IMG/VR virus record: IMGVR_UViG_2695420430_000007
Length of the DNA stretch: 5,707 bases
Source of the DNA: a virus
Taxonomy: Duplodnaviria; Heunggongvirae; Uroviricota; Caudoviricetes
Reading direction: 5' to 3' (one strand)
Shown here: piece after piece, positions 1 to 5,707 of the stretch
Layout of the letters: every line of letters starts with the position of its first letter
Position numbering within the stretch: the first letter of the stretch is position 1
The notes under the pieces: generated by a model
What the model was told of the DNA's origin: nothing
Seen by the model: the letters and a program-made list of their open reading frames with translations, nothing else
Database searches by the model: none
Translations under genes and position numbers: made by a program

Positions 1-215
1 GTAACGACTGGCAGACGCTGGAGCTGGTGTTCACCGCCGGCAGTGCCACGGTTACTCCGAAACTGAATGGAGTGGCTGGCCCGGCATTCCAGGTTATAAA
101 AGACAGTCTGACACTGGGACTGAATGCGCTGACGCTGACGGATGTTACAAAAAATGCAGCGTATGGCGTTGAGATAGAAAGTCTGGTGCTGGAGATAAAT
201 GCACCCGCAGCATAA
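1..215 (+). CDS. 3' end of an unidentified phage late-region protein; gene starts upstream of the window
   Basis: Frame is open from the window start to TAA at 213..215. The translation (..NDWQTLELVFTAGSATVTPKLNGVAGPAFQVIKDSLTLGLNALTLTDVTKNAAYGVEIESLVLEINAPAA) is near-identical to the C-terminus of ORF 632..973. I do not recognise the family. Confidence 0.55.
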   Translation, partial: NDWQTLELVFTAGSATVTPKLNGVAGPAFQVIKDSLTLGLNALTLTDVTKNAAYGVEIESLVLEINAPAA

Positions 216-222
216 TAAAAAA

Positions 223-252
223 AGCCAGCGCCCACTCTGAAGGACGCTGGCT
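223..252. terminator. Hairpin AGCCAGCG-N14-CGCTGGCT preceded by an A-run; reads as hairpin plus T-run on the minus strand
   Basis: Perfect 8-bp inverted repeat at 223..230 and 245..252 with A-run at 214..223. On the plus strand there is no T-run after the stem, so it looks like a minus-strand intrinsic terminator or a conserved structured element. Confidence 0.4.
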
Positions 253-427
253 AAAACGGGTAGATGTACTTCACATGATACTTATATCTGGCAGTACATT
301 TTCTGACAGATAGTGACGGATGTTGTCAAGATATTGTGTCATTTATAACCTGAATCAGGGGAGGCCGGAATGTTATCTGGCATTTTTAGCAGAGCCTGAA
401 TGCCATAATCACGGCTCCCGGAGTTGG

Positions 428-463
428 CCGTCAGTGGGTGACACTGGCGGCTTTTTTGTTTTT
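428..463 (+). terminator. Intrinsic terminator-like hairpin plus T-run upstream of the truncated holin copy (copy of 1341..1376)
   Basis: CCGTCAGTG-GGTGA-CACTGGCGG stem-loop followed by CTTTTTTGTTTTTC. Confidence 0.45.
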
Positions 464-507
464 CTTTACTTTCATTTTCTGTCGGCGGTGACGGAGACAT
501 ACATCAG

Positions 508-627
508 ATGGAAAAAATCACAACAGGTGTGTCATACACCACGTCAGCGGTGGGGACGGGATACTGGTTACTGCAGCTGCTGGACAAAGTCTCTCCGTCC
601 CAGTGGGTGGCAATAAACCGTTCCTGA
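508..627 (+). pseudogene. Truncated pinholin copy: first 35 codons of the S21-like holin fused to 3 foreign codons, then stop
   Basis: ATG at 508 gives [36 protein letters not shown], matching the 1421 holin, then NRS and a stop at 625..627. Homology to the intact gene ends at 614. Confidence 0.7.
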
Positions 628-631
628 TGGT

Positions 632-973
632 GTGGCGATGACGGGTACCGGTAATCCGTTCCTGATGTCGTACTTCACTCAGACCACTGACGGCAGAGTG
701 AATCTGATGCATCACAGGAAAGCCGGAAACACGAAGCTGGGGGAGTTCGGCGGTTACGGTAACGACTGGCAGACGCTGGAGCTGGTGTTCACCGCCGGCA
801 GTGCCACGGTTACTCCGAAACTGAATGGAGTGGCTGGCCCGGCATTCCAGGTTATAAAAGACGGTCTGACACTGGGACTGAATGCGCTGACGCTGACGGA
901 TGTTACAAAAAATGCAGCGTATGGCGTTGAGATAGAAAGTCTGGTGCTGGAGATAAATGCACCGGCAGCATAA
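632..973 (+). pseudogene. Duplicated 3' fragment of the upstream unidentified gene (113 codons from GTG 632 or ATG 638)
   Basis: C-terminal 63 residues are near-identical to ORF 1..215. The frame opens at 617, directly after an in-frame TAA at 614..616, which is the duplication junction. No convincing Shine-Dalgarno precedes 632 or 638. Possibly still expressed. Confidence 0.5.
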
Positions 974-981
974 TAAAAAAA

Positions 982-1016
982 GAGCCAGCGACTGACCTGA
1001 AAGAAGACGCTGGCTA
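982..1016. terminator. Second copy of the A-run plus GCCAGCG/CGCTGGC hairpin
   Basis: GCCAGCG at 984..990 and CGCTGGC at 1008..1014, with A-run at 974..980. Diverged loop relative to the 223..252 copy. Confidence 0.4.
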
Positions 1017-1122
1017 AAAGGCCTTATATGTTTGTAGAGACTTATTTTTCACAGACAGCAATGATGCCTGTCAATATATTATCAATATGCGGATTGTTTC
1101 AGTTACAGATGCTTTATTAAGG

Positions 1123-1165
1123 AAAAAAACAGCCAGCACTGACTTTCGGTGGAGAGGTGCTGGCT
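1123..1165. terminator. Third copy of the A-run plus hairpin element (AGCCAGCAC/GTGCTGGCT)
   Basis: A7 at 1123..1129, perfect 9-bp stem at 1131..1139 and 1157..1165. On the minus strand this reads hairpin plus T7. Confidence 0.4.
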
Positions 1166-1235
1166 CAGAAGGATAGTTGGATTTCACATGATACTTATGC
1201 CTGGCGGTATATTTTCTGACAGACAGTGACGGGTG

Positions 1236-1262
1236 TTGTCAAGATATTGTGTCATTTATAAC
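1236..1262 (+). promoter_or_regulatory. Candidate sigma70-type late promoter (pR'-like), TTGTCA-N15-TATAAC; copy also at ~323..349
   Basis: -35-like TTGTCA at 1236..1241 and -10-like TATAAC at 1257..1262. The 15-bp spacer is suboptimal. A terminator lies ~80 bp downstream and the holin ~160 bp downstream, resembling the lambda pR'/tR' layout. Position-based inference only. Confidence 0.3.
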
Positions 1263-1340
1263 CTGAATCAGGGGAGGCCGGAATGTTATCTGGCATTTTT
1301 AGCAGAGCCTGAATGCCATAATCACGGCTCCCGGAGTTGG

Positions 1341-1376
1341 CCGTCAGTGGGTGACACTGGCGGTTTTTTTGTTTTT
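1341..1376 (+). terminator. Intrinsic terminator-like hairpin plus T-run upstream of the pinholin (tR'-like)
   Basis: Stem CCGTCAGTG at 1341..1349 and CACTGGCGG at 1355..1363 (one mismatch), loop GGTGA, then TTTTTTTGTTTTTC. Confidence 0.45.
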
Positions 1377-1420
1377 CTTTACTTTCATTTTCTGTCGGCG
1401 GTGACGGAGACATACATCAG

Positions 1421-1627
1421 ATGGAAAAAATCACAACGGGTGTGTCATACACCACGTCAGCGGTGGGGACGGGATACTGGTTACTGCAGCTGCTGGACAA
1501 AGTCTCTCCGTCCCAGTGGGTGGCAATCGGTGTGCTGGGGAGTCTGCTGTTTGGCCTGCTGACGTATCTGACTAACCTTTATTTCAAGATTAAAGAAGAT
1601 AAGCGTAAGGTGGCGCGGGGAGAGTAG
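1421..1627 (+). CDS. S: Pinholin, phage 21 S21-like class II holin (68 aa)
   Basis: [68 protein letters not shown] aligns along its length with my recollection of S21 (..[51 protein letters not shown]). Two hydrophobic segments and a basic C-terminus. GGAG at 1406..1409. Confidence 0.9.
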
Positions 1628-1848
1628 TCGATGAATAAACAATACGAACTGGTTGTAAAATGAATATTTCTAACTGAAAAAACGTTCCATGAGGTAAGAA
1701 AAGGTCACAGGCAATCAATAACAGGACGTGATGAAAGACCCTTGCATTTGTGCGCTTTCTCTTTAGATAGCAGCAGATACTGAAAATCTGAGTTGTCGGG
1801 GAGTCAGGGATACAGCTGTGCAAGAGTTGGTCATTGTGATTCCATTGA

Positions 1849-1880
1849 AATCCTGTATGCCATGAAGGGCAGGATTTTAT
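1849..1880. terminator. Hairpin AATCCTG-N14-CAGGATT followed by TTTT, next to the stop of the minus-strand ORF
   Basis: 7-bp perfect stem at 1849..1855 and 1870..1876, then TTTTAT. Lies 3 bp beyond the stop of the minus-strand ORF and downstream of the holin on the plus strand. Could serve either strand weakly. Confidence 0.3.
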
Positions 1881-1882
1881 GG

Positions 1883-2197
1883 CTACCTGAGCTTTGGTGA
1901 TAGTAAGTTGAAAATTCGCATTTTTTGCTGACATGCGTAACGAGAATCCCATAAGCAGGGAGGACTTAATTCTTCATTAACCCATGCGTTGATATTATGT
2001 TTCAGCCGTTGAAGCATCAGCGGTGTTAATGTTGTGGTAATAATATCCAGCGTTTTATGTGAGATCTTACCGTAAGGGTCTGCAAGAATGCTGCTTGTTG
2101 CTTCGTTATTATCTGCCATCAGAAGAAGTAACTCTGATTTAACGTTTTCTGTCATTAGTTGTAAAAATCTTCTGCGCAAACTTTCTTTACTGTTCAT
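1883..2197 (-). CDS. Hypothetical 104-aa protein on the opposite strand, inside an AT-rich insert between pinholin and endolysin
   Basis: A 104-codon ORF in AT-rich DNA, where stop codons are frequent. Starts MNSKESLRRRFLQLMTENVK. Perfect TATAAT on the minus strand at 2270..2275. No family recognised; Shine-Dalgarno weak. Confidence 0.45.
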   Translation of the reverse strand: MNSKESLRRRFLQLMTENVKSELLLLMADNNEATSSILADPYGKISHKTLDIITTTLTPLMLQRLKHNINAWVNEELSPPCLWDSRYACQQKMRIFNLLSPKLR

Positions 2198-2314
2198 TTA
2201 TATGGCTTCATTTGTTGTAATCTGCTGCGTCTCAAGGGATATGTTTATGAGAGCGACCATGAGTGTTGGATTATATACCTAACATATCAAGGGATTAGAA
2301 ATCGATAAATCCCC

Positions 2315-2848
2315 ATGAACGAAAAAATAAAATACGGCCTGTCGGCTGCCGTTCTGGCGCTGATTGGTGCAGGTGCTTCTGCGCCTGAAATCCTCGACCA
2401 GTTTCTGGATGAAAAGGAAGGTAACCACACCACGGCATACCGTGATGGTGCGGGGATCTGGACCATCTGCCGTGGTGCCATTCTGGTGGATGGTAAGCCT
2501 GTTATTCCTGGCATGAAGCTGTCAAAGGAAAAATGCGACCGGGTTAATGCCATCGAACGTGACAAGGCTCTGGCATGGGTGGAGAAAAACATCCGGGTGC
2601 CGCTGACCGAACCCCAGAAAGCGGGGATCGCGTCATTCTGTCCGTACAACATTGGCCCCGGTAAGTGCTTCCCGTCGACGTTTTATAAACGAATTAATGC
2701 AGGCGATCGAAAAGGTGCCTGTGAGGCGATTCGCTGGTGGATTAAGGACGGTGGCAGAGACTGCCGTATCCGTTCAAATAATTGCTACGGTCAGGTCTCA
2801 CGGCGTGACCAGGAGAGCGCGCTGGCGTGCTGGGACATCGACAGATAG
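2315..2848 (+). CDS. R: SAR endolysin, T4-lysozyme-like muramidase (GH24), phage 21 R-like (177 aa)
   Basis: N-terminal Gly/Ala-rich weakly hydrophobic segment YGLSAAVLALIGAGASA typical of a signal-anchor-release domain. Catalytic motif E-x8-D-x5-T in EGNHTTAYRDGAGIWT. Overall resemblance to P21 R / RrrD lysozymes as I remember them. Confidence 0.88.
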   Translation: MNEKIKYGLSAAVLALIGAGASAPEILDQFLDEKEGNHTTAYRDGAGIWTICRGAILVDGKPVIPGMKLSKEKCDRVNAIERDKALAWVEKNIRVPLTEPQKAGIASFCPYNIGPGKCFPSTFYKRINAGDRKGACEAIRWWIKDGGRDCRIRSNNCYGQVSRRDQESALACWDIDR

Positions 2849-2937
2849 CAGAATATTTTCCTGAAAAATGACGTTGGCCAACGCGGGTGGATAACACGAA
2901 ATCCTGAAAACTGGTAAAACCTAAGTGAATAAAAGTA

Positions 2938-2977
2938 AAAACCCCGTTTGTTGGCAGCAAGCGGGGTTTTGTGTTTT
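2938..2977 (+). terminator. Rho-independent terminator between endolysin and the spanin genes
   Basis: AAAACCCCG..CGGGGTTTT stem (about 10 bp with wobbles) followed by TTTTGTGTTTT. A-run on the 5' side makes it potentially bidirectional. Confidence 0.6.
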
Positions 2978-3068
2978 CTGACCTTGAGTAAGGCAAGGGA
3001 GAAATTATGGGTAGGGAGGTACTTTCCCTGTGAGGAAGTATAAAAGATTCTTTCTGAGGTTGTCCATT

Positions 3069-3182
3069 ATGAAAGGCATTGAAGTGGAGACGCCAGCCAG
3101 TCTGGATTTAACAAGAGCGGCAGCTTTTGCCATTCGTATTGTGGCCATTGCTGTTCTGGTCTGGGCAATCCGTTGGTGGTGA
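3069..3182 (+). CDS. Hypothetical 37-aa single-pass membrane peptide, stop 1 bp from the Rz start
   Basis: ATG at 3069 with GAGG at 3056..3059 (9-nt spacing). Translation MKGIEVETPASLDLTRAAAFAIRIVAIAVLVWAIRWW has a hydrophobic core and a WW C-terminus. TGA at 3180..3182, Rz ATG at 3184. Too short for the ORF track. Confidence 0.4.
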   Translation: MKGIEVETPASLDLTRAAAFAIRIVAIAVLVWAIRWW

Positions 3183-3183
3183 T

Positions 3184-3651
3184 ATGAACCGTGTTCTGTG
3201 CGTGGTTATCATTGTCCTGCTGGTGGCCTGTGGTGCGCTTAGTCTGGGGCTGAATCATTACCGTGATCACGCCATCATCTACAAAGAGCAGCGCGATAAA
3301 AAAGCCAGTGAGCTGGAGCTGGCGAACGCGACAATTACTGATATGCAGATACGCCAGCGTGATGTCGCTGCACTTGATGCCAGATACTCGAGGGAATTAG
3401 CCGATGCGAGAGCTGAAAATGAAACTCTGCGTGCTGATGTTGCCGCTGGTCGTAAGCGCCTGCGGATCAACGCCACCTGCTCCGGTACCGTGCGTGAAGC
3501 CACCGGCACCTCCGGCGTGGATAATGCAACCGGCCCCCGACTGGCAGACACCGCTGAACGGGATTATTTCATCCTCAGAGAACGGCTGATGGCAATGCAG
3601 AAGCAACTGGAAGGAGCACAGGAATATATCCGTACCCAGTGTATACCGTGA
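3184..3651 (+). CDS. Rz: Rz i-spanin (inner-membrane spanin subunit), 155 aa
   Basis: From ATG 3184: [68 protein letters not shown].. matches my recollection of lambda Rz ([47 protein letters not shown]..). N-terminal TM helix then coiled-coil. The track ORF from 3127 is an upstream in-frame extension. Confidence 0.9.
   Translation: [155 protein letters not shown]
3404..3589 (+). CDS. Rz1: Rz1 o-spanin (outer-membrane lipoprotein), embedded in the +1 frame of Rz
   Basis: MRELKMKLCVLMLPLVVSACGSTPPAPVPCVKPPAPPAWIMQPAPDWQTPLNGIISSSENG: signal peptide with lipobox VSAC, proline-rich mature part, conserved PPAWIMQP..DWQTPLNGIIS as in lambda Rz1. Lies wholly inside Rz in another frame. Confidence 0.88.
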   Translation: MRELKMKLCVLMLPLVVSACGSTPPAPVPCVKPPAPPAWIMQPAPDWQTPLNGIISSSENG

Positions 3652-4116
3652 TGTTTTGTTATGAAGGTGTTACTGGTAACGTTAAGGTAATTTAACAAAG
3701 AGTCAGTTCCGGACTTTATAGTGTGCTCAGTTCATGGCCAAAAACGATTTCTGTGATAAATATTTTGAATATTATTTACAGGTAAATGGAGTGGGGCACA
3801 TGGATAGAAATATTACAATAGAGAATGAAGTATATGCCCGTATTGTATGGGCAGAGAAGGCAAAAACACGGTAATTCCGTGTGTTGCCATGATACCTGAT
3901 TGGCAGAATAGTTGTTTGGTTTTGAGTATATAGTCAGCGTTTTTTGTTCAGTAATTGCTCCCTCAAAAAATAATAAAATAAGGTGATTATTTTTGTTTAT
4001 TATTTAGTTTTTTTTGTGTGTTGTTTTATTGTTTTTGCGTGGTTTGTTTTTTATTGTTATTTCATTAAGGGAAGGTAAATTCAGGATGGCAGTCTGTAGA
4101 TAATCGGAGGTCACTT

Positions 4117-4431
4117 ATGCTACATGATCACGTGGCAGAATGTTTGGAGAAAAAAGGACTGTACCGGAGAGCAGCTGAACGATGGGCAAAAGTGATGGTA
4201 CAGCTAAGTGATGACCAGAAAAGAAAAGTGGCGGCACAGAAACGAGCAGAGTGTTTGCGTAAGGCGCGCCGGACTCCGGTTTCACCGGTGAACCTGACCG
4301 AAATAAAACAAGCGGTCAACAGACTACATTCTGAGTTGGGAATGGGATTTGAAGAGCGGCGGGTATTCCGACGATATAAAGGGACAGGAGAACAGAATAC
4401 GTCCGGAAACGCGCGGTCAAAAAAATGCTAA
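4117..4431 (+). CDS. PerC-family-like small basic protein (Pch-like candidate transcriptional activator), 104 aa
   Basis: GGAGG at 4106..4110, 6 nt before the ATG. N-terminal EKKGLYRRAAERWAKVM resembles the GLWRRAA..RW signature I recall for PerC/Pch. Family assignment from memory; needs an HMM or BLAST check. Confidence 0.55.
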   Translation: MLHDHVAECLEKKGLYRRAAERWAKVMVQLSDDQKRKVAAQKRAECLRKARRTPVSPVNLTEIKQAVNRLHSELGMGFEERRVFRRYKGTGEQNTSGNARSKKC

Positions 4432-4467
4432 AAAATATCTGAGAGAGTTATTGCCTGTTACCATAAG

Positions 4468-4494
4468 AAAAAGCGACTTTAGTGGTCGCTTTTT
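4468..4494. terminator. Bidirectional intrinsic terminator between the convergent PerC-like and YlcI-like genes
   Basis: AAAAAGCGAC-TTTAGTG-GTCGCTTTTT: 6-bp GC stem flanked by A5 and T5, so it is hairpin plus U-run on both strands. Lies between the stop at 4431 (+) and the stop at 4513 (-). Confidence 0.7.
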
Positions 4495-4512
4495 GTGTCA
4501 TATATAAGTCGT

Positions 4513-4737
4513 TTAAGTAAACCTGTCTGAACAGGTGCTCTGGTCGTGTTTGTCTTTGTTGGGTACAAATTGAGAATATTTTTCATTAATTAATCTTCTT
4601 CTGCAGGCTTCAATAACCCACGCTGAAAAATTACCTGAACCTTTCAGGTCAAGAGCGATGTTAATTTGTTCAATTATCTGGTTTGGAAATCGGATGTTGC
4701 GGGTTGTTGTTCTGCGGGTTCTGTTCTTTGATGACAT
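4513..4737 (-). CDS. YlcI-like (DUF3950-like) small protein, 74 aa
   Basis: MSSKNRTRRTTTRNIRFPNQIIEQINIALDLKGSGNFSAWVIEACRRRL.. matches what I remember of E. coli DLP12 YlcI, which sits just upstream of the Nu1 homologue nohD there, as here. From memory, not a search. Confidence 0.55.
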   Translation of the reverse strand: MSSKNRTRRTTTRNIRFPNQIIEQINIALDLKGSGNFSAWVIEACRRRLINEKYSQFVPNKDKHDQSTCSDRFT

Positions 4738-4807
4738 AATGTTGCCCCGTATTCAGTGTTGCTGATTTGTATTATCTGAAGTTGCTTTTACGCTAATTTG
4801 ATGCAGA

Positions 4808-4838
4808 TCAATTAATACGATACCTGCGTAATAATTGA
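4808..4838. promoter_or_regulatory. Imperfect palindrome TCAATTAATACG-N7-CGTAATAATTGA upstream of the YlcI-like gene
   Basis: 12-bp arms with one mismatch, 7-bp spacer, ~70 bp upstream of the minus-strand start at 4737. Candidate operator; function inferred. Confidence 0.3.
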
Positions 4839-4944
4839 TTATTTCTCGTGGTTTGATGGCGTACACACATGTCGTGATAAACCTCATGTAGATGATAATT
4901 ATTATCATTTTCGTGGGTCCTTTCCGGCGATCCGACAGGTTACG

Positions 4945-4956
4945 GGGCGGCGACCT
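4945..4956 (+). other. cos: cosN: lambda-type 12-nt cohesive-end sequence GGGCGGCGACCT
   Basis: 4881..4989 closely matches the lambda right-end/left-end junction as I recall it (..CGACAGGTTACG|GGGCGGCGACCT|CGCGGGTTTTCGCTATTTATGAAAATTTTCCGG). Similarity stops at ~4990 where cosB begins. Confidence 0.85.
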
Positions 4957-4991
4957 CGCGGGTTTTCGCTATTTATGAAAATTTTCCGGGA

Positions 4992-5093
4992 TCCATGTCC
5001 GGTTTCTCTTCAAGTTAACTATATGAAAAATATAAAAACAGGTCTTCTGTGAACCGGACATGAACAAAAAACAGACATGTAAACCGGACATGA
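4992..5093. promoter_or_regulatory. cosB-like region: three copies of AACCGGACATGA (two direct, one inverted) flanking an A/T-rich segment
   Basis: AACCGGACATGA at 5052..5063 and 5082..5093; inverted copy TCCATGTCCGGTT at 4992..5004. A/T-rich 5006..5050 lies between the inverted and direct copies, mirroring the lambda R3-I1-R2-R1 layout with a different repeat sequence. A partial copy CAGACATG sits at 5072..5079. Confidence 0.6.
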
Positions 5094-5139
5094 CCGGTTT
5101 TGTTGTGATTGTGAGGTGAGAGTTTTTGCGAGGTGAGGA

Positions 5140-5649
5140 GTGGCTACGCAGACTGAAGTTGCCAGGCATTTAAGTCTGACCGATCGCCAGCTTCGCAGAT
5201 TGCAGAAATTGCCGGGTGCCCCGATATCGAATAAGCGAGGGCAACTGGATCTGGATGCCTGGCGCGATTTTTACATATCGTATCTGAGGAGAAGTAAAAA
5301 CGATGTGCCTGATGGCGATAGCGAAGACGACTATGAGGAGAAATTGCTTATTGCCAGATGGGAACTGACAGCAGAACAGGCTGTTACACAGCAGTTAAAA
5401 AATGAGGTGTCAAAAGGAAAACTTATTGACACCGGGTTCTGTATTTTTGCCCTCAGTAAGCTGGCAATGGCGTTATCCAGTACGCTTGATTCCATCCCTT
5501 TATCCATGCAGCGACAGTTTCCTGATTTAACACCGCGCCATCTTGACCATCTGAAAACCCTTATTGCGAAGGGGGCAGATCAGTGTGCGCGGGCAGGGGA
5601 TAAATTACCGGATTTACTCGATGAATATATCAGAGCAACAACTGAATAA
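5140..5649 (+). CDS. nu1: Terminase small subunit, Nu1-like (169 aa), GTG start
   Basis: C-terminal part (DTGFCIFALSKLAMALSSTLDSIPLSMQRQFPDLTPRHLDHLKTLIAKGADQCARAGDKLPDLLDEYI) aligns with lambda Nu1 as I recall it (ETAFCTFVLSRIAGEIASILDGLPLSVQRRFPELENRHVDFLKRDIIKAMNKAAALDELIPGLLSEYI). N-terminal ~50 residues are divergent. GTG at 5140 is the first start after an in-frame TGA; GAGG lies immediately upstream. Confidence 0.85.
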   Translation: MATQTEVARHLSLTDRQLRRLQKLPGAPISNKRGQLDLDAWRDFYISYLRRSKNDVPDGDSEDDYEEKLLIARWELTAEQAVTQQLKNEVSKGKLIDTGFCIFALSKLAMALSSTLDSIPLSMQRQFPDLTPRHLDHLKTLIAKGADQCARAGDKLPDLLDEYIRATTE

Positions 5650-5707
5650 TATGATGGCTGCCGTTTCGGTTGCGCTGCAGCCTCTGGTCAGGGTTGTACC
5701 AATGACG
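5621..5707 (+). CDS. A: Terminase large subunit (gpA-like), first 29 codons; continues past the window end
   Basis: ATG at 5621 in a different frame from Nu1, overlapping its last 29 nt as in lambda. Translation MNISEQQLNNMMAAVSVALQPLVRVVPMT shares the MNIS start with lambda gpA and has no stop to the window end. Confidence 0.6.
   Translation, partial: MNISEQQLNNMMAAVSVALQPLVRVVPMT

Follow-up and report, generated by a model that had tools for sequence, protein, structure and literature searches.

A tandem-repeat-like joint between the esterase-holin regions of two lambdoid prophages, probably produced by assembly

One way to account for a stretch of phage DNA in which the same genes begin twice is to suppose that the region was duplicated in place. 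For the stretch considered here (5,707 nt of tailed-phage DNA, hereafter the window), what looks like a tandem duplication probably has no biological reality. Sequence comparison with related prophages demonstrates a two-parent origin and a non-homologous joint: 1-615 is the allele of one lambdoid prophage (P1), and 618-5707 that of another (P2). We infer, with moderate confidence, that the joint is a scaffolding or concatenation artefact, in which a 615-nt P1 contig was set before a 5,090-nt P2 contig.

Two copies, two prophages

The repeat finder and pairwise alignment agree with the preliminary description that two near-identical blocks are present. The first relates 1-224 to 759-982 at 99% identity, with two mismatches (105/863 and 206/964); the second relates ~265-614 to ~1178-1527 at ~95% identity, and includes an exact stretch of 131 nt (320-450 = 1233-1363). 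Identity between the copies ends past 614, and the repeat is far above chance expectation. Start-to-start spacing is 758 in the first block and 913 in the second; copy B is therefore 155 bases longer, which bears out the earlier estimate of ~155 bp, and alignment gaps locate the extra bases within ~981-1150.

Each copy has its own source (Table 1). Bases 1-614 form a single block of 100% identity with NZ_CP148374.1 (14589-15202), and also with NZ_CP145657.1; direct comparison with the P1 locus carries the identity to 615. P1 is an HK97-type prophage, carrying HNH, Terminase_2 and HK97-type late genes. From nt 109 onward its holin reads AGGTGTGCTGGGAAG..., toward the YdfR, HNH and Terminase_2 genes. 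On the other side, 618-1700 is 100% identical to the P2 allele in NZ_CP071263.1 and NZ_CP148579.1, and 1540-5707 is 100% identical to NZ_CP148374.1 (977090-981257, opposite strand); the whole of 618-5707 is 100% or near-100% identical to P2, a lambda-type prophage resident in the same E. coli strains as P1. In the closest complete genomes the two lie ~1 Mb apart in opposite orientation, P1 on the plus and P2 on the minus strand. The P1 part of the window is a PasC-type allele; the P2 part holds a PasA-type allele together with the whole lysis, cos and Nu1 region.

Both alleles are widespread as single copies, while the two copies in the window are only 95-99% identical to each other. At each of the ten places shown for this holin allele there is a single complete esterase and a single holin; the spacer may be of either type, and so may the packaging module. 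The full-length 616-aa esterase proteins carry DUF1737, SASA and DUF6645. On the evidence of these alleles, the 95-99% identity and the 155-nt indel are allelic differences older than the joint, not divergence that followed a duplication.

Table 1. Coordinates of features in the window
Feature	Position	Strand	Evidence
SASA-family sialate O-acetylesterase (nanS-p / yjhS type) 3' end, last 70 codons and stop, P1 allele	1..215	+	100% identity to NZ_CP148374.1, annotated SASA family carbohydrate esterase
pasC sRNA gene, copy A; Rho-independent terminator hairpin 223-252	217..297	-	PasC probe, E2348/69 alignment, terminator scan, fold
Structured element, copy A; terminator-like hairpin 426-452 and T run, 46 nt upstream of holin start	355..462	+	Terminator scan, fold
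Truncated class II (S21-type) holin ORF; codons 1-36 (TMD1 and loop), then N-R-S-stop from joint/esterase DNA	508..627	+	ORF list, Pfam PF04971
Joint	615..617	.	Direct comparison with P1 locus and P2 locus
Esterase 3' fragment, nt 1496-1851, P2 allele; ORF 632-973 (113 aa)	618..973	+	100% identity to NZ_CP071263.1, NZ_CP148579.1
Pas-like unit; terminator hairpin 983-1016	974..1060	-	Alignment with E2348/69 PP2, terminator scan
pasA-family sRNA gene, copy B	1119..1210	-	PasA probe, E2348/69 alignment
Structured element, second copy; terminator-like hairpin 1339-1365	1268..1375	+	Terminator scan, fold, pairwise alignment
Intact 68-aa class II holin (S21-type pinholin), P2	1421..1627	+	PF04971 E 1.9e-32, profile positions 1-63 of 64; annotated WP_000411804.1
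Endolysin partner, 177 aa, hydrophobic N-terminus, unduplicated	2315..2848	+	Pfam PF00959; annotated lysozyme

The spacer carries antisense sRNA genes

The region between esterase and holin had been taken for a promoter with a hairpin. Probe and alignment matches instead identify its minus-strand units as the known pasC and pasA-family antisense sRNA genes, which usually go unannotated; a consensus scan of the conserved spacer finds no plus-strand promoter-like site. In copy A, the published PasC northern probe CGCTGGCTAAAACGGGTAGATGTAC (PMC8550237 Table S6) occurs verbatim at 245-269, and the gene is near-identical to PasC of E2348/69 (NC_011601 1290832-1290909); the element folds at -30.2 kcal/mol (z -4.6). 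In copy B, the PasA probe GCCAGCACTGACTTTCGGTGGAGAG occurs verbatim at 1131-1155; over its 3' 50 nt the gene matches E2348/69 PasA exactly, and the 5' part is variant. The terminator scan gives minus-strand matches at 252-223 and 997-983, the latter in the Pas-like unit at 974-1060. The counterpart of this unit in E2348/69 is the end point of a 236-nt minor PasA transcript, the major and minor PasA 3' ends being given in Table S6 (PMC8550237). The same table records the Pas layout, on the opposite strand between esterase and holin, as directionality '> < >', and that layout is the one seen here; Hfq-dependent expression has been shown for E2348/69 only (PMC8550237). PasC-type and PasA-type spacers differ by 155 nt, and each type is single-copy in the fetched loci, including E2348/69.

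A plus-strand structured element lies between the sRNA genes and the holin in each copy; that of copy A folds at -44.6 kcal/mol (z -3.2). An Rfam scan of the whole window with E up to 1 returned nothing in 1-1700, and so matched neither the Pas sRNAs nor the structured element; its only match in the window is a sub-threshold rimP-leader at 2928-3003.

The truncated reading frames

The ORF list contains both of the truncated frames that had been described, the 39-aa holin frame with TM1 only (508-627) and the C-terminal esterase fragment (632-973), which has a GTG start. The first is identical to the P1 holin through nt 108; its PF04971 match takes in residues 2-36 only (profile positions 1-35 of 64), and TMD2 is missing from that match. 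By domain content this ORF is a holin fragment, not a holin. TMD2 is reported to be necessary and sufficient for pore formation (bioRxiv 10.1101/2021.04.20.440580); with that domain missing, the proposal that the fragment influences lysis timing finds no support. In the esterase fragment Pfam matches just a portion of the C-terminal DUF6645 (profile positions 40-115 of 119); the catalytic SASA domain (PF03629) is absent. The P2 lysis cassette downstream is intact. Neither holin start shows the dual-start motif of holin and antiholin, as neither 508 nor 1421 has an upstream ATG in the same frame; holin alleles of 71 aa exist in other prophages.

The joint

Direct comparison with both parental loci gives the order of the joint as holin nt 108, AA, esterase nt 1496. 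A615 belongs to the P1 holin allele; A616 and A617 match neither parent, and there is no microhomology. The head-to-tail novel joint, unit end to unit start, is thus present at 615-618. The preliminary description had placed a joint at 614-617 and the interior of the upstream gene beyond it, and both stand; the native holin codons number 36, not 35, and the esterase DNA begins at 618 (nt 1496, codon 499).

Two candidate explanations of the junction sequence were rejected. Between the holin end GGGTGGCAAT and esterase GGGTACCGGTAAT at 643-655 there is a likeness (repeat D6); it does not explain the joint, because the joint enters the first CCGTTCCTGATG copy and not the second. An esterase allele with A before CCGTTCC would abolish the filler; there is none in IMG/VR, and the sole match among GTDB representatives is a chance match on an unrelated high-GC Kiritimatiellae contig.

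None of the six collections searched contains the joint. The 5,426 complete E. coli genomes hold no contiguous match, every match listed being in two pieces; nor does the joint occur in the INPHARED phages, the GTDB species representatives, IMG/VR or the JGI metagenomes. The junction ORF products (39 aa, 98 aa and 113 aa) are not found among ~15 billion proteins. A 111-aa esterase fragment that begins at an internal ATG and lies wholly on one side of the joint is recorded from three short contigs, the longest of 4,754 nt; this fits contigs that simply start within the esterase gene.

Origin of the joint

The preliminary description had raised an assembly artefact as a caveat; it is now the leading explanation. 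That is, two lambdoid prophages would each supply a cassette of ~0.8-0.9 kb, consisting of the esterase 3' end, the antisense Pas sRNA gene or genes, a structured leader and the pinholin 5' end, and the two would stand in series. The join would have been made in silico, with a repeat-bounded 615-nt contig bearing the P1 spacer placed ahead of a 5,090-nt P2 contig; as the P2 contig starts inside the esterase gene, the region common to both would appear twice. Both the 39-aa holin frame and the 113-aa esterase frame would then be functionless by-products of the join.

This reading is favoured because base 1 and both sides of the joint lie at recurrent start or end positions of short-read contigs in other E. 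coli assemblies. At least six independent draft contigs (NCBI, ENA metaSPAdes) begin exactly at window base 1. The holin break falls on a P1/P2 SNP, nt 108; N-terminal holin partials of 35 aa are found on 151 contigs, and of 36 aa on 45. The esterase break falls 3 nt past the P1/P2 SNP at nt 1493; a 118-aa P2-allele partial, corresponding to a contig start at nt 1493-1495, is found on 21 contigs, and partials of 116, 117, 119 and 120 aa are not on record. The edges of the joint thus coincide with recurrent contig ends. In the collections searched, independent genomes lack the joint but have both parental arrangements, each as a single copy. At its far end the window stops 12 nt inside the point where other lambda-type terL genes start aligning; this end is in frame after terL codon 29, directly before a conserved AVEWAD stretch. 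A rotated record, in which the window would be the final part of a complete genome made to begin in terL, was considered and dropped, base 1 being a recurrent draft-contig start.

Some points speak against an assembly origin. A de Bruijn graph assembler cannot build the holin-to-esterase adjacency unless reads contain it, and the AA (or AAA) filler is explained by neither parent. Holin contig ends are spread over codons 29-45; therefore, the coincidence on the holin side is only moderately informative. The remainder of the window is an error-free match to its relatives, so that the assembly is otherwise good. When a de Bruijn k was sought in the spacing of edges and SNPs, no standard value fitted.

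A second perspective, possible but unlikely in our judgment, supposes a genuine and very recent illegitimate (homology-independent) recombination of co-resident P1 and P2. P1, up to holin codon 36, would have been fused to P2 from esterase codon 499 onward, two untemplated A residues lying between them, either by chromosomal inversion between P1 (plus) and P2 (minus) or in a hybrid phage formed upon co-induction. This would give a prophage that has the P1 early genes and P1 esterase, dead stubs of holin and esterase, tandem pasC and pasA, and an intact P2 lysis and packaging module. The presence of both parents in the same strains in opposite orientation suits this account, as inversion at both sites gives exactly this joint; the lack of any divergence from the parental alleles is what a very recent event would leave, and the intact downstream lysis cassette, the need of graph assemblers for reads across a joint, and the commonness of mosaic exchange between these modules all speak for it. 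Several features nevertheless tell against it. The structure is absent from the E. coli genomes, INPHARED, GTDB representatives, IMG/VR and JGI metagenomes searched; a joint with no microhomology and a 2-nt filler is unusual for illegitimate recombination in E. coli; and the natural P1/P2 hybrids seen are all single copy, formed by homologous exchange. Each breakpoint, in addition, sits at one of the few positions where P1 and P2 differ, or no more than 3 nt away, and these positions are recurrent contig ends; by a rough estimate, chance would give such a coincidence in well under 1% of random pairs.

A variant in two steps is very improbable. It supposes a duplication within P2 (holin nt 107, AAA, esterase nt 1496), after which homologous gene conversion by P1 replaced everything in the upstream copy up to an 89-nt shared stretch before the joint. 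If A615 is filler, the last P1-specific marker is 525, and the 89 nt of shared homology (526-614) is where a conversion tract could end; however, two rare events are needed where one suffices, the structure is found nowhere else, and the filler and the breakpoints on SNP and contig-end positions remain. Duplication of one locus in situ by slippage or unequal crossing-over, with later substitutions and a 155-nt indel, as first proposed, accords with the head-to-tail arrangement and the 95-99% copy identity, but is refuted by the comparison with related prophages and keeps next to no credibility: the two copies match two different extant single-copy alleles (P1 and P2) at 100% identity, the copies are not each other's closest relatives, the 155 nt correspond to the known polymorphism between PasC-type and PasA-type spacers, and independent divergence cannot recreate two existing alleles exactly.

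Implications

If the joint is an artefact of assembly, it serves as a warning: paralogues of lambdoid prophages in E. coli drafts can appear as false tandem duplications. These yield truncated 'genes' and false tandem sRNA copies, which would contaminate surveys of copy number for holins, nanS-p or Pas. The esterase-holin spacer, for its part, is the site of known antisense sRNA genes, not of a promoter and hairpin.

The joint may, with rather low probability, be real, in which case it would be a fresh homology-independent joint of co-resident lambdoid prophages, seen before selection or decay. It would then offer a direct snapshot of phage mosaic formation, and a rare unselected illegitimate phage-phage joint; pasC and pasA, at a distance of 913 bp, would be the first such sRNA pair in tandem. 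The late transcript would carry, before the real holin, a pinholin stub that has TMD1 only and keeps its native ribosome-binding site; the arrangement would be a natural construct for the effect of free TMD1 peptide on pinholin timing, and for the dosage of tandem pasC/pasA sRNAs.

Comparison with known systems

Each copy in the window has the layout of the esterase-pasA/pasC-holin-lysozyme module of lambdoid (Stx-type) prophages (Pearl Mizrahi et al. 2021, PMC8550237; Zhu, Shabalina and Storz 2026, bioRxiv 10.64898/2026.05.13.724894): sialate esterase, minus-strand Pas sRNA with its terminator beside the esterase stop codon, class II holin, lysozyme. The window differs in having a pasC unit and a pasA-family unit in tandem, 913 bp apart, a state that is probably a product of assembly. 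Across 1,362 genomes, two pasA copies are never closer than 22,551 bp and two pasC copies never closer than 48,389 bp, and tandem pasA duplication is ruled out by the authors (PMC8550237; bioRxiv 10.64898/2026.05.13.724894); these distances concern copies of the same gene, and the pair in the window is pasC beside pasA.

The S21 pinholin and SAR endolysin system of phage 21 is a further likeness: downstream of a full-length PF04971 holin of 68 aa come a lysozyme whose N-terminus is hydrophobic and then Rz. The holin allele of the window differs from S21 in its single start codon, with no antiholin start of the S21-71 type (read from 490-510), and the extra 39-aa ORF consists only of TMD1 and loop, without the pore-forming TMD2.

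The novel joints of lambdoid phage mosaicism reportedly arise by illegitimate recombination, in the model of Hendrix and Juhala. If real, the joint described here would resemble the raw product of that process before selection: a non-homologous lambdoid joint with incomplete gene copies left beside it. The mosaic boundaries known so far mostly coincide with gene borders and occur in many genomes; the joint in the window, by contrast, lies inside two genes, is found nowhere else, and falls on contig-end positions.

The last comparison is with the unrolled bubble, an artefact in which allelic or paralogous contigs stand side by side in short-read scaffolds, normally with a run of N between them. 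The window differs in having two to three A residues in place of the N run. It is like such joins in that alleles E-A-H and E-B-H, with shared flanks, are written as E-A-H-E-B-H, and in that all edges fall at paralogue forks.

Parental prophages of the repeat

The tandem structure at the left of the window brings together homologous segments of two different prophages, and their tandem arrangement is itself most likely not biological. The preliminary description had read 1-1540 as an imperfect tandem duplication, with ORFs at 508-627 (39 aa) and 632-973 (113 aa). Repeat search and pairwise alignment bear out the repeat, and both ORFs are present: positions 1-224 equal 759-982 save for 2 mismatches; ~265-614 matches ~1178-1527 at roughly 95% identity, including a 131-nt exact stretch, with no similarity past 614; and the downstream copy (B) is 155 nt longer than the upstream copy (A, 1-615). 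Duplication of one locus followed by divergence does not stand, however, as each copy matches a different prophage; the preliminary interpretation is supported in part.

Positions 1-614 form one 100% block with NZ_CP148374.1 14589-15202, and likewise with NZ_CP145657.1, in a prophage (P1) with HK97-type late genes (HNH, Terminase_2); on direct comparison with the P1 locus L003, identity reaches 615. The downstream part belongs to a lambda-type prophage (P2): its copies in NZ_CP071263.1 and NZ_CP148579.1 match positions 618-1700 at 100% identity, and 1540-5707 correspond, again at 100%, to 977090-981257 of the closest relative, NZ_CP148374.1, read on the other strand. The sole difference in the latter genome's P2 copy is an IS1203 insertion at 1127-1130. 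This element (IS3 family, ~1.3 kb; 5513-6823 of L002, the locus fetched from that genome) has its insertion point in the A run that makes up the tail of the PasA terminator; its borders overlap by 4 bp. Because both prophages match the nearest complete genomes, they are co-resident there, ~1 Mb apart.

Origin of the joint

Base-by-base comparison with the parents gives the order at the joint: P1 holin to nt 108 of the gene (615), AA matching neither parent (616-617), then P2 esterase from nt 1496 of the gene (618), with no microhomology. Among 5,426 complete E. coli genomes there are two-piece matches only; the joint is unmatched in INPHARED phages, GTDB species representatives, IMG/VR and JGI metagenomes, and in the first 19 (L001-L019) of the 29 loci used for comparison. 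Junction ORF products of 39, 98 and 113 aa are not found among ~15 billion proteins; a 111-aa version of the esterase fragment, not crossing the joint, is on record there.

The tandem structure is probably an assembly artefact. A 615-nt repeat-bounded P1 contig with the PasC spacer would have been put ahead of a 5,090-nt P2 contig; as the latter would start inside the esterase gene, the segment common to both would be written twice. Six or more independent contigs from draft assemblies (NCBI and ENA metaSPAdes) begin with precisely the first base of the window, and the window end lies 12 nt inside the position from which other lambda-type terL genes become alignable; the window therefore resembles a complete contig or scaffold from short-read assembly. 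In NZ_CP148579.1 and NZ_CP145657.1, complete genomes with records opening at the P1 terL gene, the equivalent of base 1 stands 5,708 nt before the end of the record, against a window length of 5,707 nt; no causal link was found for this agreement, which is treated as coincidence.

Both edges of the joint also lie at P1/P2 SNPs. Only five sites separate the parents over the final 900 nt of the esterase gene (963, 1493, 1631, 1741 and 1842), and four over the opening 160 nt of the holin gene (18, 108, 120 and 159); the joint leaves the holin gene at nt 108 itself and enters the esterase gene 3 nt past 1493. By a rough estimate, random breakpoints would fall this close to SNPs in well under 1% of cases. 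The same positions are contig ends in other assemblies: 35-aa and 36-aa N-terminal holin partials are known from 151 and 45 contigs, respectively, and a 118-aa P2-allele esterase partial, equivalent to a contig starting at nt 1493-1495, from 21; esterase partials of 116, 117, 119 and 120 aa are not on record.

These coincidences of base 1, SNPs and contig ends count against a genuine, recent illegitimate joint of P1 and P2, which is possible but unlikely. Several points speak for it: graph assemblers build a joint only from reads across that joint; no program step could be named that makes such a join; neither parent explains the AA filler; holin contig ends are scattered over codons 29-45, so that the holin-side coincidence is weakened to moderately informative; and P1 and P2 are oppositely oriented in the nearest genomes, where an inversion with these breakpoints would give exactly this joint. 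A two-step origin, by duplication and gene conversion, is quite improbable. Duplication followed by divergence is least credible of all and in effect excluded, since the differences between copies A and B are allelic and older than the joint. These four readings leave a small remainder of the probability unassigned.

The identical 68-aa holin allele is single copy in 10 of the 10 places shown (L010-L019), whatever the spacer type or packaging module. It is found there with two Q antiterminator types, with either type of spacer, and with lambda-type (Nu1/gpA) as well as HK97-type (HNH/Terminase_2) packaging; this variety illustrates frequent homologous exchange within the common esterase and holin segments.

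If the joint is real, the P2 lysis cassette would be intact, as would pasC and the pasA-family gene. The 39-aa ORF keeps TMD1 and the loop but not TMD2, its Pfam match covering profile positions 1-35 of 64. TMD2 is reported necessary and sufficient for pore formation, while the N-terminus times activation (bioRxiv 10.1101/2021.04.20.440580); an effect of the ORF on lysis timing is speculation. The 113-aa ORF holds part of DUF6645 only, without the SASA catalytic domain (Pfam).

Gene content

The window represents the late region of a lambdoid prophage of E. coli.

Features of the window, with position or place in the gene order
Feature	Position	Strand	Basis or place
SASA-family sialate esterase gene (nanS-p / yjhS type), 3' end			first in gene order
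Spacer			between esterase 3' end and holin
pasC sRNA gene, copy A	217-297	-	PasC northern probe; alignment with E2348/69
Third Pas-like unit with terminator, copy B	974-1060	-	alignment with E2348/69
pasA-family variant sRNA gene, copy B	1119-1210	-	PasA northern probe; alignment with E2348/69
Structured element, two copies	355-462, 1268-1375	+	strong predicted fold, z ~ -3
Class II holin, 68 aa			after spacer; PF04971
Lysozyme, Rz			after holin
PerC homologue, DUF3950 gene			after Rz
Nu1, start of large terminase gene			last in order

Between the holin and endolysin genes sits a minus-strand ORF (1883-2197, 104 aa), without a Pfam match, annotated in relatives as a 90-aa hypothetical protein. 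The PerC-family regulator gene (4117-4431, plus strand, 104 aa, PF06069) follows a very AT-rich stretch with many T runs (3900-4080). Positions 4940-5100 contain what we take to be a likeness to the lambda cos region (GGGCGGCGACCTCGCGGGTTTTCGCTATTTATGAAAATTTTCCGG). Downstream of it, just upstream of Nu1, repeat search finds AACCGGACATG three times (4992-5006, inverted; 5048-5063; 5078-5093); these may be terminase-binding R sites.

The spacer and its small RNAs

What had been taken for a hairpin/promoter region holds known Hfq-dependent minus-strand sRNA genes. Published northern probes occur verbatim, PasC at 245-269 and PasA at 1131-1155 (Pearl Mizrahi et al., PMC8550237, Table S6). By alignment, the 155 extra bases of copy B correspond to the third Pas-like unit; the 236-nt minor PasA form of E2348/69 ends at this terminator unit (PMC8550237). 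All three units lie antisense between esterase and holin genes and are unlisted in the RefSeq annotation of matching genomes. Within the esterase 3' end, at 175-205 and 933-963 (plus strand), is GATAGAAAGTCTGGTGCTGGAGATAAATGCA, which the supplement of PMC8550237 gives as the PasA motif site of the E2348/69 esterase mRNAs; a Pas sRNA may thus pair with the esterase gene that it overlaps tail to tail.

At its end, 46 nt before the start of either holin, the structured plus-strand element has a terminator-like hairpin followed by a T run, and 320-450 is identical between the copies. No Rfam match and no description was found for it.

The esterase-Pas-holin-lysozyme module has been described by Zhu, Shabalina and Storz (bioRxiv 10.64898/2026.05.13.724894), with a minimum pasA-pasA spacing of 22.5 kb and pasA copies judged not to be tandem duplicates. 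If real, the joint would be new: an illegitimate fusion of two lambdoid prophages on which selection had not acted, with pasC and pasA in tandem. Each copy in the window is an ordinary member of the esterase-Pas-holin module, and the holin, which has a single start codon, is likewise an ordinary member of PF04971.
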